Below, in pieces: positions 6,840 to 64,000 of a stretch of 64,000 nucleotides of DNA (within the stretch, counting starts at the first letter, position 1; the number at the start of each line of letters is the position of its first letter). Source of the DNA: Octopus vulgaris (lineage: Eukaryota); the NCBI GenBank assembly GCA_951406725.2, contig OX597815.1:40672001-40736000 (forward strand), written 5' to 3'. The notes below the pieces were generated by a model. That model did no database searches. It worked only from the letters and a program-made list of their open reading frames with translations, and was not told the DNA's origin. A program made the position numbers and the translations under genes.

Positions 6840-8707
6840 GTCATGTCATTAATTTTCAATGTATACTATATGTTCACATGCTTATAGATATCTGTAACAT
6901 ATTTTGTATCCTAATACCCTTGTAGGGAAAACGACTACGTAAGGAGTTGGTGACAGAAATGTCTCCTTTTTAAATGCTGCATGGTCGCCCTAACAAAAGA
7001 AGCCAAATACATGATATAAATGGATAAGTGCCAAAAGGAATAATGAGGATGACAACCGTTCTGCTGTTTGAGAGAAGAAAGACTTTATTTACAGATGTGT
7101 ACAATAAGATAAAGTATGGGTGCTAGCAAAGTGGAGTGTCTGTGTGTATGCGACAAGTGTTTGTGTCTGTGTGTTCGTGTGTGTGACAGAAGTACAAACA
7201 AGGTGTATGCGGGCAAAACAAAATACAATACAGAGCATAGAATGAGTCTCTCAGGATATTTCAGACAAGATGGAGTTAATTTACCAGTTCGTAGTAAGGT
7301 ACACAATAGTAATAGTTCTGTAACAGGATGTTGGGGTCACAAGTGCAGAATACCGGTTGAACACATGTCATGTAGCAGTTGGGGCTTCAATGCTGTGTCA
7401 GGTCTCTTGATACAGGAATTCTTGCAGGTAGTGCTGTGCTGTTAACCTTGGTAAAAATCAAGCTAAACTTGAGCGGGTGCTGTGTATGTATTGGTATTGC
7501 TGGAGATGAAGGCGATGGAGGTGTAGACGACATGAAGTTGAGCTAAGGCGTTGGTGAAGAAAGACATCGTTGAGTTGCTGCATGTTGTCTGCCCTGGAAC
7601 TGGAACTGGCTGAGTTGCTGGAACATAGCTGAGTTGCTCTGTGGTCAGAGGTTAGTCCTGAAAAGGACTAGAACCAAAGACGAGAAATGGTGATTTGCTG
7701 GTGCCTTTTATAACCTGAGGTGGGCTCCAGTGAAACCCCAAAAAGACTGTGTCATGGGACCTTATCTGAAGGCTGTGATTGGTTGGCTTACACACTGGCA
7801 CGAAATAAGTCAAGTGACAAACTGCACCAATGTCAACCAATCAGAGCAGTGGACACAACTGGGTCAAAATAGCTGAAGATGGTTGCTATCTAACACAAGA
7901 TCATTTCTAATATATCTCTCAAACAGTGAGGATATCAGCTACGCTATACCCTGTTACAAAAGAGTAGCAACTAAACCAATAAATAGCTCAACTTACTAGA
8001 AAGAGTAGTCAAAATTTCCCTCAAATCATACCCAACTATCTAAAATAAAAAAGGGATAAGATTAGATAATTTAGTTCCAAATACATAAAATGGAAGGTAG
8101 TAATGGTTGGAATGTCTTTGATTAAAAATCTGCTCAATCTGGTCTTACCAGGGGCTAAACAGTAGCAGCAACACTGTCTTAATTAGTTTTTTGTTATAAT
8201 CAGGAATTCAGAAAGGTTTAGTTAAATAACTAATTCTATTTTTTTCTTTTGTATGCAATAGAAACAACATTGATTTAAAATAACCATCTATGTCACATGA
8301 TCACATGACATAGATCACATGATCACGTGACCAGCCAGGCTGTCAGATGTTGTTACATATCACTGGTGACAATGCGTTTTTGCATTGTTTTAGCCTTCAA
8401 ATGCCACCGCCTTGCTGGCTAGGCGAGCAGGCCATCATTCCCCCCTGATCAAAAGGGAGACTGGAGCAATGTGAAATGAAGTGTTTTGCTCAAGAACACA
8501 ACATGCTGCCCAATCAGGAAATCAAACTCATGATCTAGTGATTGTGAGTGCAATAGCCTTACCATTAGGCCACACGCCTTCACAACCATCCATGTATCAT
8601 ACATATAAATAATATAAATGCATCGTTGAAATTCAATTTACTATGGTATTTGTCCAATGATAACATTTCTTATGGATGTGCTGTGTTTAAAAACAACATA
8701 CTGTATG

Positions 8708-16591: not shown

Positions 16592-16895
16592 TATAAGTAA
16601 ATAAATGGAGTTGAATGCAAATGTTATTAAAATTCTTTTACTTTCGATATATGTTTCGAAGACAACATTGGTTTTATTCCAAAGGAATAAACGGTGTAAA
16701 ATGCAATCTTCTCATCAGGAAAGAAAGAGAGCCTATCTCAACAACAAGACATTATAACAAGGCTCTCTTTCTTTCCTGAGAAGATTGCATTTTACACCGT
16801 TTATTCCTTTGGAATAAAACCAATGTTGTCTTCGAAACATACGTTGAAAGTAAAAGAATTTTAATAACGTGTTCAACTCCATTTATTTACTTATA
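16592..16895. repeat. Fold-back inverted repeat (~140-bp arms, 25-nt loop) carrying hammerhead motifs
   Basis: Arms 16592-16734 and 16760-16895 are near-perfect reverse complements; the right end runs into (TA)n. Confidence 0.93.
16641..16723 (-). ncRNA. Minimal type-I hammerhead ribozyme motif
   Basis: Minus strand reads ctttc CTGATGA gaaga...tcttc GAAA C ATAT A TC gaaag; stems I and II pair perfectly. Confidence 0.75.
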
Positions 16896-35900: not shown

Positions 35901-36693
35901 TTTCAGATGATAAAAGATCACTTTATGCACTAAAGTGGTTGGCATTAGGAAAATCATGCAAAAGCAGTCACTGGAACACAATGCAGTTCCTGCAACCATC
36001 AAATACCAAGGGATCTGATGGATCCAACAATCTGACCCATGCCAGTATGTACCATGGACATCAAATAAAGATGCCTTGCTGTGTGGTTAGAAGCTTGCTT
36101 TCCAACCACATGGTTCTGAGTTCAGTCCCACTGCATGACACCTTGGGCAAGTGTCTTCTACTATAGCCTCGGGCCAACCAAAGCTTTGTGAATGGGTTTG
36201 GTAGACAGAAACTGAAAGAGGCCCGTTGTATGTGTTTTGAACCTCTGTCACCACTAGGCAACTGTTGCTGGTGTGTTTATGTCCCCATAACTTAGCAGTT
36301 CGGCAAATGAGTCTGATAGAATAAGTCCTGGGGTTGATTTGTTTCACTTAGAACGCTTGAAGGTGGTGCTCCAGCATGGCCACAGTCCAATGACTGAAAC
36401 AAATATACATAATTGCACATACATATATAATCTCTATGAGACCTTAGTATGTTTAGCTGTAAACATGGCTGAGTGGATGGTTAAGAAGCTTGCTTCCCAA
36501 AGCATGATTTTGGGCTTTGTGCCACAGTCTTAGATCCACCAAAGCCTTGTGAGTGGATTTGGTTAACAGTAACTGAAAGAAGCATGTGTGTGTGTATGTA
36601 TATATATATATTATTATAATATTAGGGAGTATAAATCCAAGCTTACAGTGAAATATTCAATTTAGTATTAAATCAAATTTCACAAGAAGCTAA

Positions 36694-38890: not shown

Positions 38891-39349
38891 AAACATTTGT
38901 CTAGATCACAGTAAAGTACATAATAAATAATATATAATTAGTAAATAGACTATATAATTAGTAAATAAATACATATTTTTAATAAATAGTCAAACAGAAT
39001 TAAACAATATTTCTTAAAGAAATAAAAACATTCTTGTTATAGAAGATTTTCCGTTAACTAAATTTTAAACTTAAAAAGTAGGACCACTTTAGTTAAAGGA
39101 ATTTCTTCTATAAGAATCATGTTTTTTTTTCTTTAAGAAATATTGTTCAATTCTGTTTGATGATTTATTAAAAATATGTATCTATTTAACTATTTTTGTT
39201 ATTGTTGGCCTGAGGAGTGACTCGATTAAATTTAAATTTAATTGTAATTTGAATTGAAGATATAGCAACGAAACATATGTAGTCTATTTACTAATTACAT
39301 ACTATTTATTTATTTTTATGTACTTTATTGTGATCTAGGTAAATGTTTT
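38891..39349. repeat. AT-rich fold-back inverted repeat; right arm carries hammerhead motif
   Basis: aaacatttgtctagatcacagtaaagtacat ... atgtactttattgtgatctaggtaaatgttt. Inner arms also pair (ttaactaaa / tttagttaa). Confidence 0.82.
39205..39286 (+). ncRNA. Minimal type-I hammerhead ribozyme motif
   Basis: ttggc CTGAGGA gtgact...agcaac GAAA C ATAT G TA gtcta; core intact, stem II partly decayed. Confidence 0.68.
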
Positions 39350-41097
39350 TATCGTATATTTTATTTTTTTCTATATGGTATGATTTACGTCTTTCATTGT
39401 TTGAATTGCATAATAGTGGTTTTTCTTTAATTTATATATATATATATCACTGGTGGTGCTCCAGCATAGTCACAGCCTTAGGTTTGATGTGTTTAAAGAA
39501 TATATGTGTTGAGGTGCGTGGCTTAGTGGTTAGAGTGTCGGACTCATGATCGTAAGATTGTGGTTTCGATTCCTGGACCAGGTGAAGTGTTTTCTTGAGC
39601 CAAAATGAGTAATCTTGCAACGGACTGGTGTCCTGCCGAGGTGTGGAATGTATGCGCTATGGAAACTGGAAAACCAGCCCTCATGAGCCTGGCATGTCTT
39701 GAGAAGGAAACATATATATATACATACATATATATATAAAGGGCTGGGCACAAGTGTTGGTTTGTTTATATCCTTGTATCTTAGCGGTTTGACAAAAGAA
39801 ACTGATTGAATAAGAACCAGACTTTAACAAATGTAAGTGCTGGGCTTAGTTCATTTGACTAAAAACTTTCAATGATAGAAACTAAAGCATATATATATCA
39901 TCAAATATGACACAAATATTAAGTGGTTAAATATATTCACCTCTCATACCTTCTGACTTTTATGATCTATATACTCCTCATGGAATAATTTCATAGACTG
40001 GATCTACTGGATTTCAGCTGCATAGGACTCTACATTACACTCTGTATTGGATTACTATGTGGTATGTAGCCCAGTCCACCAGAGGAGCTTTCTGTGATTG
40101 CCACAGGATTCTATGAATCCATATATTGTACTACAAATTTATCTATCAAAATCGAAATCGATTAACATCAATGGAAATTGTAGCTGTGATACCAGTGCCG
40201 GTGGCATGTAAGAGAACCATCCAAACGTGGCCGTTGCCAGTGCCGCCCTGACTGGCCTCTGTGCCAGTGGAACGTAAAAAGCACCATTCGATCGTGGCCG
40301 TTTGCCAGCCTCGTCTGGCACGTAAAAAGCACCCAATACACTCATGGAGTGGTTGGTGTTAGGAAGGGCATCCAGCCGTAGAAACACTGCCAGATCAGAC
40401 TGGGCCTGGTGCAGCCTTCTGGTTTCCCAGACCCCAGTTGAACCGTTCAACCCATGCTAGCATGGGAAGCGGACGTTAAACGATGATATGTGTGTGCCAT
40501 GCAGTGGTACCAAGCCCCAGAACACATTGTTAAGAAGCAAACTTCTAAACCATAAAGCAATACTTGCATATCGTCATTATCATTTGATGTCTGCTTTCCA
40601 TGTTGGCATGGATTGGATGGTTTGACAGAATCTGGTAAGCCACTGGGCTGTGCTAAGCTCTAGTGTCAGCTTTGGCATTGTTTCTATTATCTGGATGCCA
40701 ACCACTCTACAGTTTGTACTGGTGCCTTTTTTTTGTTTTGTTCCACTTGTACTAGTGAGATTGCCTAGTAACTTGCAACACAGAAAAAGAACAGGGCAAG
40801 CGGAAAAAGCTCCCAGTGCTAGATGTGAGGAATATTTGGAAGTGGGAGGTGGCTTTATGCTTAGTGTTGAGAGGCTAGAGGGACATGCACAAGTGTCTTG
40901 CTATAGAGGAAATACATGTAGAGGTGGGTGGGAATAATTGGGAAGGAGATTAAGATGGTAGTGATGGAGTGCCAGAGTAAACTTGCAAGGGACATGAAGG
41001 TGAGTGTAAGAGAGGATACAGACAGTGGGTTAGGACTGAGGAGGAGAGAGTAAGAGATGGGAGTATAGGTAGAGGTATGTATAGAGATGGGAGTATA

Positions 41098-60417: not shown

Positions 60418-60785
60418 TATATTATATATACATATATATAACATATATATAATATATATTATATATAGATCTGTATCATTTATATTATATATAGATACAA
60501 TATATATATATATATATTTATATATATCTATATATATATGATGATGATGATATATATATATATATATATATATATACTAGATATATATTATATATATATA
60601 ATATATATATCTAGTATATATATGAAATTAGAAAAAAACCACCTTTTATCAATTCAAAATGAACAATTAAATTACACCATCTAGAAAATTACATACAATA
60701 GAAATATTAAAATTAAAATAACAATAAAATACCAATGATTAAGTAAATTGCAAAAAAATAATAAAAACGTATATAATTGGTAGAA

Positions 60786-60889
60786 TAACAACAACTGTTT
60801 CGTGGCTATATTTAAGAAATGATTATAGTAAAAAAATTAATAGTAGTAGTAAAATCACTTCGATATAAATATAGCCACTCATCAAGTTA
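60786..60889 (-). ncRNA. Inverted copy of the hammerhead motif (C3>U variant)
   Basis: Minus strand reads taac TTGATGA gtggctatattta...taaatatagccac GAAA C AGTT G TT gtta. Confidence 0.7.
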
Positions 60890-63495
60890 AAAATAAACTA
60901 GAATAATAAAGTAATTAATTAATAAATATACTTTAATATATATATATATATATAAAATACTAAATATATATTAAGTGAAAACTAAAACAATACTTAAATT
61001 ATTAAATACTTTAAAATTAATTAATATACACAATGCTAGTACAAGTCATTAAATTGTAATCAAAATAAGAAATGGTTCAAATATAGACAAACTCATTAAA
61101 TAAGCTAACTATATAATTAATATACATGTGTAGTATCTATAGATTTAATATATATATTTTTTTTAAATAAATATTTATTATAGTAATATAAATTAATTTC
61201 AACATAATATATATGTATTTGATTTAATTACTTATTATTTAGACTTTAAATTTATAGTAAATAGTCATTTAAATTTAATGCTATATTAATTTTATGTACC
61301 TATATTTTACATTTAACTTATCTTTAGTATTATTAAACCTTATTTCGTCTTATGTGGTTTATCTATTTATTGTAATATCATTTAATAGTATTAGAGTATA
61401 TTTTACTATTTTATTATATGTTATATTAATATTTTATACAAAATGATGAATATTTGTTGATTGTGAGTTTGAGATGAGTTTGGGCTTCATGTATTGGAGA
61501 CTATTGGAAGGGTTGAATGGTAGGGGTATAGTCGGCTGTGAATAAATTTGGTGGTAGTTGGCAGTTTGTTGTAGTTTGGGTTAGTGGTAGTGATGGTAAT
61601 AATTAATAATGATAATAGTAATGGTGATGATGATGATAATAATAATGATAATCGTGTACGGCTTGATGTAGGGTCCAGGTATTTTTGATGAACAAGTAAT
61701 ACTTATACTATTTTTATTAATTTTCTTTGATTCATGAAGTTTAGATAATTCCTGTATTTTTCATTAATAAATTCCTTTTAGTCATTTTCATTAATAATTT
61801 TATTCTATTTTTCCATGCAACATCTCCACGAGTTTTATTTCTTATAAACGTTAAGAACTATTCTTTACATTTATAATCTAGTGGTATTTTCTCAACTAAC
61901 TAAGCAATGTTCTTTTCTCCATTTTGTTTGGATTTTGTATTGTTTTGGGATTAATATTTAGCTGTTGTTAATATTGTTATTGATTTATTAATAGGGGTCT
62001 GTTAGTTATAGTTGGGTGTCTTCATGGTAGTTTCTCCATAAGTTGTGTTTTTTCTCACATTTCTTTAGTTCATGAGGCTTAAATGCTTTTTTTTTTTTTC
62101 ATATTTTTTCATTGATAAAAAAATTTGCCATTTTCATTGAGTATTATTCTATTTCTTTGCACTAAGTCTTCACATGTTAAATTTTATAAATGCTTTAACT
62201 ATCTTATGTTTAAAATTCAGTTACTTTTTTCCTTTGCAAAGATAAGTTACATTTGACATTTTATCGTTTATCGTTTTCATTTGATTTTGGAATTGTTTTG
62301 GGTTTGAAATTATTATTATTATTATTGTTGTTATTATTATTATTGTTGTAATATTATTATTTATTTATAGTTTCTTGATAGTTATTTTTTATGTTCGCTA
62401 TTAGATATGATATCTTTTAATTTTTATATAGGAATTTAACGTTTTACATATTATTTAATTTGAGAATTAGTTTCGTTAGACTATATATTTTTTTTAATAA
62501 TTAGATAATATTTTTATTAAGTAGTATTACATTTAAGTAAACTAGTTTTTATTTTAATATCAATTTTATGTTTAACTTTATTATCGTGTGAAATATTAAA
62601 TCTATAGATATTAATAATATAATTAGTTTATATAATGGATTTGTGTATATTTGAACTATTTCCAATTTTCGATTGTATTATTCATGACTAGTTGGGTGTT
62701 TACACATAAGACGCTAAAACATATTAATACTTTTAAAATCCAGATAGATTAATTTAATTTAATTGATGAACTTAGTAATATAGTTTGTTTACCAATATTA
62801 TTTGGATCTTGTATTATTTTGAGTTTGATCGTTGTTATTATTATTATTGTTATTGACTGGATTTGTAGTGGACTGGTGATTGTGATTGAAAATATTCATA
62901 GTGTATTGTTCATTGGTTCTAATATTTTTGCACCTTTCTTTAATTTTTGGAGCTAAAATGTTTCTTACTTTCCATTAGCAAATAATTCTCGCCATTATAT
63001 CATTTTTATATATATTGATAGATATTAATTCTTATATCTATTTATTTAGATTTATATATATATATATAACCCATGCCAGCATGGAAAGCGGACGCTAAAC
63101 GATGATGATGATGATGATGATATATATAGATATATATAGAAAAGGATCTAACATATTAAATTTAATTTAATTTGAGAATTAATTTTGTTAGACAATATGT
63201 TATCTAATTATTAGGTAGTATATTATGTAGTATTAAATTTTAAGATAATTAGGTATTATATTAATTGATATTTAGTCAACTATATTATAGATTGATATAT
63301 TAAATCTATAGATACTACACATGTATATTAATTATATAGTTAGCTTATTTAATGAGTTTGTCTATATTTAAACCATTTCTTATTTTGATTACAATTTAAT
63401 GACTTGTACTAGCATTGTGTATATTAATAAATTTTAAAGTATTTAATAATTTAAGTATTGTTTTAGTTTTCACTTAATGTATATTTAGTATTTTA

Positions 63496-63538
<43 letters not shown>

Positions 63539-63582
63539 AAGTATATTTATTAATTAATTATCTTATTATTCTCTTTTATTTT

Positions 63583-63686
63583 TAACCTGATGAGTGGCTA
63601 TATTTATATCGAAGTGATTTTACTACTACTATTAATTTTTTTACTATAATCATTTCTTAAATATAGCCACGAAACAGGTGTTGTTA
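63583..63686 (+). ncRNA. Minimal type-I hammerhead ribozyme (intact core)
   Basis: taac CTGATGA gtggctatattta...taaatatagccac GAAA C AGGT G TT gtta; 13-bp perfect stem II base, 4-bp stem I, GUU cleavage triplet. Confidence 0.8.
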
Positions 63687-64000
63687 TTCTACCAATTATA
63701 TACGTTTTTATTATTTTTTTTGCAATTTACTTAATCACTGGTATTTTATTGTAATTTTAATATTTCTATTGTATGTAATTTTCTAGATGGTGTAATTTAA
63801 TTGTTCATTTTGAATTGATAAAAGGTGGTTTTTTTCTAATTTTTTATATATATATATTATATTGTGTGAAATTTTATTTAGTATTTCTAAATTGAATTTT
63901 TTCCCTGTAAGTTAGGATTAATATTCCCTCAAATAATCATTATATATATATATATACATATTATATAGAATTTATATATAAATGTATAATATATTATATA

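Follow-up and report, generated by a model that had tools for sequence, protein, structure and literature searches.

A probable Hydra-clade Penelope-like insertion with a long non-coding trailer and an inverted second copy in the Octopus vulgaris genome

The window, i.e. the whole stretch of DNA that was analysed, comprises 64,000 nucleotides of the Octopus vulgaris genome (GCA_951406725.2, contig OX597815.1, 40,672,001 to 40,736,000), and close to its right end an AT-rich insertion with long inverted arms interrupts a (TA)n microsatellite. The features are given in window coordinates, and the family to which the insertion belongs is referred to as family A.

60420..60624: left flank, (TA)n microsatellite that served as target (sequence reading)
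60625..63941: whole insertion, assigned to a Hydra-clade Penelope-like element (PLE), flanked on both sides by (TA)n
60625..61153, minus strand: left arm, inverted 5'-truncated second copy of the element 3' end (corresponds to 63295-63842), without the tail
60786..60889, minus strand: left hammerhead, degenerate; U3 for C3 (60885), octamer ACAGUUGU, GUU, site 60790
61146..61160: head-to-head junction in a short overlap rich in TA, about 15 nt past the parent ORF stop
61154..63941, plus strand: main copy, complete 2.8-kb non-coding 3' trailer of family A, truncated on its 5' side right after the ORF
61921..62966, plus strand: old degenerate direct repeats (61921-62091 versus 62795-62966, 68%)
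62434..62692, plus strand: internal duplicate of 63146-63407 (73%), family-wide, without hammerhead
63068..63136, plus strand: unrelated repeat stub, 3' end of a repeat with a (GAT)n tail, inserted into a TA tract
63583..63686, plus strand: right type I hammerhead; stem I of 4 bp, CUGAUGA 63587-63593, stem II of 13 + 9 bp and a loop of 28 nt, GAAA 63671-63674, octamer ACAGGUGU (in the family majority, ACACGUGU), GUU 63680-63682 (majority GUC)
63843..63941, plus strand: internal TA tract and tail of about 100 nt, equivalent, in a full-length copy, to the sequence whose end lies about 60 nt ahead of the ORF start
63942..64000: right flank, (TA)n microsatellite that served as target and runs on past the window end

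The inverted arms that had been described from the sequence alone are borne out by blastn, which aligns 60596-61153 with 63862-63295 at 90.9% with gaps (E 0.0); outside the microsatellite, their limits are 60625 and 63842. The arms differ by 13 substitutions in 526 gap-free columns, plus indels, and thus are 2.5% apart. Five derived bases are common to both arms and differ from the family majority, which would fit a single RNA template, but gene conversion could give the same pattern. While the arm limits stand, the right end of the element had been set too early at 63842: 63845-63943 is a 92% match to what immediately precedes the ORF in a full-length copy, which places the element end at about 63941. 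The interior indeed lacks ORFs (the longest stop-free frame in a six-frame reading of the window has 71 codons), yet it is not the most AT-rich part, as the arms have 18% and the interior 22% GC. No target-site duplication can be read within the (TA)n. From 1.2% divergence per arm and a published calibration (JC 0.09 = 25 My, PMC13282606), an insertion age of 3-4 My may be estimated.

What the interior represents became clear from its genomic copies. The 2.8-Gb genome was searched with the right arm (3039 first-look candidates, best 40 scored, 49 matches) and with the interior (1021 first-look candidates, best 40 scored, 106 matches). Eight of the 29 other interior loci extend to the position of the window junction at 61154, and in all eight the upstream DNA runs on into the same ORF with a reverse transcriptase (RT) plus a GIY-YIG endonuclease (EN) at its C-terminus; the stop codon of this ORF is found about 15 nt ahead of the base equivalent to 61154. 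As 8/8 copies followed upstream continue into this RT-EN ORF, the non-coding interior of the window is, as judged from sequence, the 3' trailer of an ORF-bearing Penelope-like element. One copy (L113) is full-length, with about 5.4 kb after subtraction of a 470-nt insert. There is no intact family-A ORF among the fetched copies or the best protein matches. The majority of the broken ORFs nevertheless reads open in one frame (551 + 56 + 212 codons, the 5' half coming from only 2-3 copies), and for this reason the family was once coding and has decayed copy by copy, with lesions that are mostly private. A late mobilisation in trans by a sister family, termed B, is thus possible; it has 78% amino acid identity to family A, and stop-free ORFs of 821-862 codons are found in 11 of 12 fetched loci. 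The insertion had been called recent; with arms 2.5% apart and no intact family-A ORF among the fetched copies, it is only moderately so.

The trailer itself hides no further ORF: in the majority sequence the longest stop-free stretch has 91 codons, with 73-111 stops per frame, and when nine Hydra proteins were compared with three trailers by tblastn, no match fell below E 0.5 save the overlap of tail and ORF. It contains several degenerate repeats of 260-330 nt with 66-76% identity. The diverged internal direct copy that had been noted is real, but it is not a partial pLTR of this insertion, as it carries no hammerhead and also occurs in other family copies; it predates the insertion. In one family-A copy (C10:2527119-2527509), trailer start and arm are only about 175 nt apart, possibly by an internal deletion of about 1.9 kb.

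Hydra elements are characterised by RWK and DKT motifs, a CxCX5C linker, a lack of the CCHH signature, and CxxC and CxH around the E and N residues of the EN; their hammerhead is canonical, they insert into (TA)n, and as a rule they stay below 3 kb (PMC8557442). The parent copies outside the window contain a single ORF, in which the RT precedes the C-terminal GIY-YIG EN. The RT of family A has a YRDD motif and DKT instead of DKG (KSDKTKN; QSDKTRN in family B), and the linker reads CTCRDKSTC in two family-A copies (L062, L068) and CTCRDKSNC in family B. At the N-terminal RWK column, KWK is found in A and B, and RWR and RWK in two further families, C and D. As judged by eye, the EN has no cysteine pair inside GIY-YIG, i.e. 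no CCHH, and reads CSLCNIE...N...CKH. The hammerhead of the family is in sense orientation near the 3' end, and (TA)n targets are seen in the window flanks as well as in the listed 3' flanks of other copies. The Pfam GIY-YIG match (E 0.0013) is below the cut-off, and the RT gave no match in Pfam or PDB sequence searches. With a short motif of Hydra-1_Obim we found five genomic copies whose translations agree by eye with the published protein, and the family-A RT is 32% identical to such a copy (E 5e-44). The size limit is exceeded by families A, B and C (5.4-6.8 kb) and by D (3.36 kb), but it is a described tendency and not diagnostic. Motifs and similarity thus point to the Hydra clade; the RT tree has eight rows, is unrooted and was made without other Penelope clades. 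The Penelope-like architecture of the original prediction is thereby upheld and, by the ORF motifs, the RT match and the insertion pattern, narrowed to this clade. Naiads were considered as well and are ruled out, since they carry an N-terminal EN.

The insertion pattern of the family was assessed with 60 fetched loci mapped on the element. They have a common 3' end and breakpoints at many 5' positions, often with an inverted partner. After four duplicate loci had been dropped, 57 3' ends in 56 loci could be counted, 34 of which have the tail, while 23 stop at the internal TA tract and are thus about 100 nt shorter. In the ten loci with two opposed ends, the tail is present on one end only in nine cases and on neither in one; likewise, in the window pair it is on the right end and not on the left. 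The inverted partners elsewhere start at positions equivalent to 63397, 63444, 63477, 63535, 63686, 63746 and 63768. Thus, the insertion traits of EN-containing PLEs are present: 3'-anchored, 5'-truncated copies, partial tandems, an inverted partner and a one-sided tail. The inverted truncated partner together with the one-sided tail has been published for PLEs (PMC8557442, PMC3846280), as have pairs on opposite strands in truncated PLEs (PMC4209133). For a Poseidon element in vitro, two RT start sites define the tail, both strands are nicked and extended, and hammerhead cleavage is unnecessary (PMC11167929). The two 3'-end classes, one per partner, fit these start sites and suggest that a distant clade, in which the tail is longer, follows this scheme too. 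The tail contains a 13-bp hairpin (window 63868-63900), and a similar one with changed pairs is found at the same place in family B; with z values of -0.5 in family A and -2.7 in family B, this hairpin gives a faint hint that it could mark an RT start.

We therefore read the window feature, with a probability of roughly 0.92, as one Hydra-clade PLE insertion in (TA)n, consisting of a 2.8-kb trailer together with 530 bp of its 3' end copied in inverted orientation. Both copies were likely written by the RT and the GIY-YIG nuclease of the element itself. The nuclease would nick both strands in the (TA)n, and the RT would start twice on one RNA, once where the tail ends (63941) and once at the TA tract inside (about 63843). 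Both cDNAs would terminate early, at 2.8 kb and 0.53 kb, before being joined head to head via the short TA overlap. A cut by the hammerhead was likely not needed for this insertion, because it contains 260 nt past the predicted site. The locus is an ordinary decayed retroelement insertion of a known kind, from an undescribed long-trailer family.

What alternatives exist for this reading? In principle, the family-A trailer could have spread as a passenger of family B after its ORF had decayed, and the window copy could come from such an ORF-less master. The arm is indeed far more common than the ORF-proximal trailer, by about 10- to 100-fold in read depth and with 3039 versus 1021 first-look candidates, but 5' truncation alone predicts such a 3' bias. 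Families A and B have a common 3' end of 137 nt (73%), which is the only trailer homology among A, B, C and D. Subfamilies exist, as the best arm matches have a stem II loop that is 15 nt longer than in many long copies; the ORF, however, also occurs in long-loop copies, including the full-length L113. Although the copy at C10:2527119-2527509 appears internally deleted, no shared deletion junction was seen, and the window copy starts about 15 nt behind the ORF stop, past which 8/8 copies hold the ORF. A passenger sublineage is thus improbable.

Even less probable is a mobile non-autonomous 3.2-kb unit, either retrozyme-like or Foldback/MITE-like with 530-bp terminal inverted repeats, as it might be assumed from the long inverted arms and the lack of an ORF in the window. 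Among the 42 matches listed for a junction query against the genome, the window alone spans the junction, the inverted partners elsewhere start at differing positions, and the interior belongs to an RT-EN gene, as its trailer. Moreover, there are two opposed hammerheads and no tandem of short hammerhead units. The retrozyme-like, non-autonomous element of the original prediction therefore finds no support. A Foldback DNA transposon is ruled out, since the inversion breakpoints vary by locus and no fixed terminal inverted repeats are common to the copies. An assembly artefact in the TA-rich repeat is hardly credible: while no contig of four public runs bridges 61147-61179, where repeats were skipped, the arms differ at 13/526 columns and by indels yet have five rare bases in common, and in ten other fetched loci opposed ends form pairs whose breakpoints are their own and whose tail is one-sided, as in published real insertions.

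In the right arm, the core boxes are in place, and the long stem II is confirmed, with 13 perfect pairs around a 51-nt insert that contains the second, 9-bp helix; cleavage is predicted after 63682. The region folds with -30.7 kcal/mol (z -5.1; 0/200 shuffles as good). Still, this hammerhead, which had been considered intact, is not wild type, as two functional sites are off the family majority. Both changes are derived and common to both arms, i.e. ACAG... in place of the palindrome ACACGUGU, and GUU in place of GUC. The left arm has, as reported before, the additional U3. An alignment of 58 hammerheads, taken from the top-scoring loci and hence biased toward the type of the window, contains CUGAnGA in 51, GAAA in 49, the palindrome ACACGUGU in 35 and C17 in 50 copies, with 24 copies being of the majority type at all four sites; the ACAG variant is present in three, two of which are the window arms. 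With the derived changes, the self-duplex of the right-arm octamer weakens from -10.3 to -1.6 kcal/mol, and in the fold the altered bases pair with AACCUG of the hammerhead core. The hammerhead fold lies 10.5 kcal/mol above the best fold in the right arm versus 4.2 in a majority-type copy. The right-arm ribozyme is thus likely impaired, and both window hammerheads are likely weak or dead.

The family hammerhead, with its palindromic stem III and GUC, is predicted to cut tandem transcripts only when it forms a dimer, and a palindromic helix III has been described as the mark of PLE hammerheads that depend on a dimer and are weakly active (PMC4209133). A 15-nt indel in the stem II loop divides the family-A subfamilies and leaves the helices untouched. 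After insertion, 14 of 578 cells in the hammerhead core versus 197 of 6336 non-CpG cells have changed, without a clear difference in constraint. Two inverted partners start 3-5 nt past the predicted cleavage site (L018:1797, equivalent to 63686, and L113, 63687), but 5' ends at this site, one of 60 listed ends (L018) and the one in L113, are too few to point beyond chance. The Rfam scan of the window gave 0 matches at the gathering score.

Related and unrelated motifs occur elsewhere. An older relative of the family-A 3' end (73%) lies at 39210-39447 on the plus strand, and its long-stem-II hammerhead (CTGAGGA ... GAAACATATGTA) is decayed; separately, a tail fragment (81%) is found at 36599-36684 on the minus strand. 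A hammerhead-like motif of a different repeat (CTGATGA, 6-bp stem, 54 nt enclosed, GAAAC) is found at 16718 on the minus strand and in L106 at oriented position 8210. The (GAT)n-tailed repeat, whose stub interrupts the trailer, is found in L111 430 nt behind a LINE-like RT frame (RVT_1 E 1.4e-4, below the cut-off), and at least 11 more 3' ends of this LINE-related repeat are present in the window (3182, 4512, 8760, 14923, 17280, 18178, 37182, 38843, 40451, 45408 and 49529).

The sister families were found by a protein search of the genome, and A, B and C form one clade (support 100/100 in the unrooted eight-row RT tree). In family B, five tandems have 6.0-6.8 kb from hammerhead to hammerhead and a sixth has 8.0 kb; its 3.7-kb trailer has direct and inverted internal repeats, and stem II is short. 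Its loci L100-L110 (e.g. C14:24329000-24338900, minus strand) are young, with partial tandems and most copies 97-99% identical, and a CA/GT-rich part contains stop-free stretches of 150-312 codons that differ between copies. Family C (L114-L116; 47% identity, 955-962 codons) has a 5.6-kb unit with a 2.6-kb trailer, and its hammerhead (L115:3050-3152, minus strand) holds about 85 nt of unrelated sequence in stem II (z -4.4), the palindrome ACAGCUGU and GUC. Family D (L117-L128) is very young, with a 727-codon ORF, a 3.36-kb unit and a short stem II. Most of its at least 59 copies are without stops, and inverted partners occur in L121 and L128.

Only two features go beyond what is published, namely the non-coding trailers of 2.6-3.7 kb in A, B and C, with units of 5.4-6.8 kb, and the very long stem II arms in A and C. 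We found no account of long-trailer Hydra elements in the literature; Repbase/Dfam or the supplements of PMC13282606 may hold such families. It is conceivable, but rather doubtful, that the A/B/C sublineage doubled in size by fixed trailers of 2.6-3.7 kb that arose partly from its own direct and inverted truncated copies, and that trailer and arm form a functional RNA. Equally tentative are the roles they might then have, either as a leader that supplies the ORF downstream with a promoter or introns, or as a scaffold for dimer cleavage. If this is true, family B, which has many intact ORFs of 838-862 codons and tandem copies that are 97-99% identical, would lend itself to tests of the mechanism with two start sites and of what the ribozyme does. 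Units of 2.5, 3.4, 5.4, 5.6 and 6.3 kb in one genome widen the size range of Hydra elements. As the trailer exceeds most truncated copies, thousands of members resemble non-coding AT-rich repeats with inverted ends and are easily misfiled as DNA transposons or retrozymes, and the long-armed hammerheads escape Rfam as well as short-stem descriptors.

Compared with known systems, the elements are closest to Hydra-1_Obim and its clade (PMC8557442), with which they have in common the order of RT and GIY-YIG, DKT, CxCX5C, the absence of CCHH, CxxC/CxH around E and N, the sense hammerhead near the 3' end and the (TA)n targets; 5' truncation with an inverted partner is reported there for Penelope-13_HM. 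Differences from the published Hydra descriptions are the unit size (5.4 kb in A, about 5.6 in C and 6.0-6.8 in B, versus 2.1-2.7 kb in complete published elements), KWK or RWR instead of RWK, the sequence enclosed by stem II (77 nt in A and about 85 nt in C versus about 10-25 nt in File S2 of PMC8557442), and a tail of about 100 nt versus 30-40. The minimal PLE hammerheads of PMC4209133 are likewise of type I, with a short helix I, an enlarged helix II and a palindromic helix III predicted to be dimer-dependent, but their helix II has 7-8 bp versus 13 + 9 bp here, and the left U3 of the window retains G8 and hence is not their U3-A8 variant. For a long loop, PLE-X1_sMoe can be named, with a 9-bp stem II and a 35-nt loop (PMC8557442). 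In Adineta vaga, Pen1_Av has spacers of 0.9-1.5 kb before the 3' pLTR, a precedent for long spacers, and the spacers of Pen1_Av and Pen2-4_Av vary between copies and capture host DNA (PMC3846280), whereas here each family has one common trailer of 2.6-3.7 kb, built of internal repeats in A and B. Animal non-LTR retrozymes (bioRxiv 10.64898/2026.07.22.740005, PMC7229834) are similar in that a type I hammerhead lies in a non-coding Penelope-related repeat, but they are tandem arrays of hammerhead-bearing non-coding units, while the window contains a truncated piece of a coding element.
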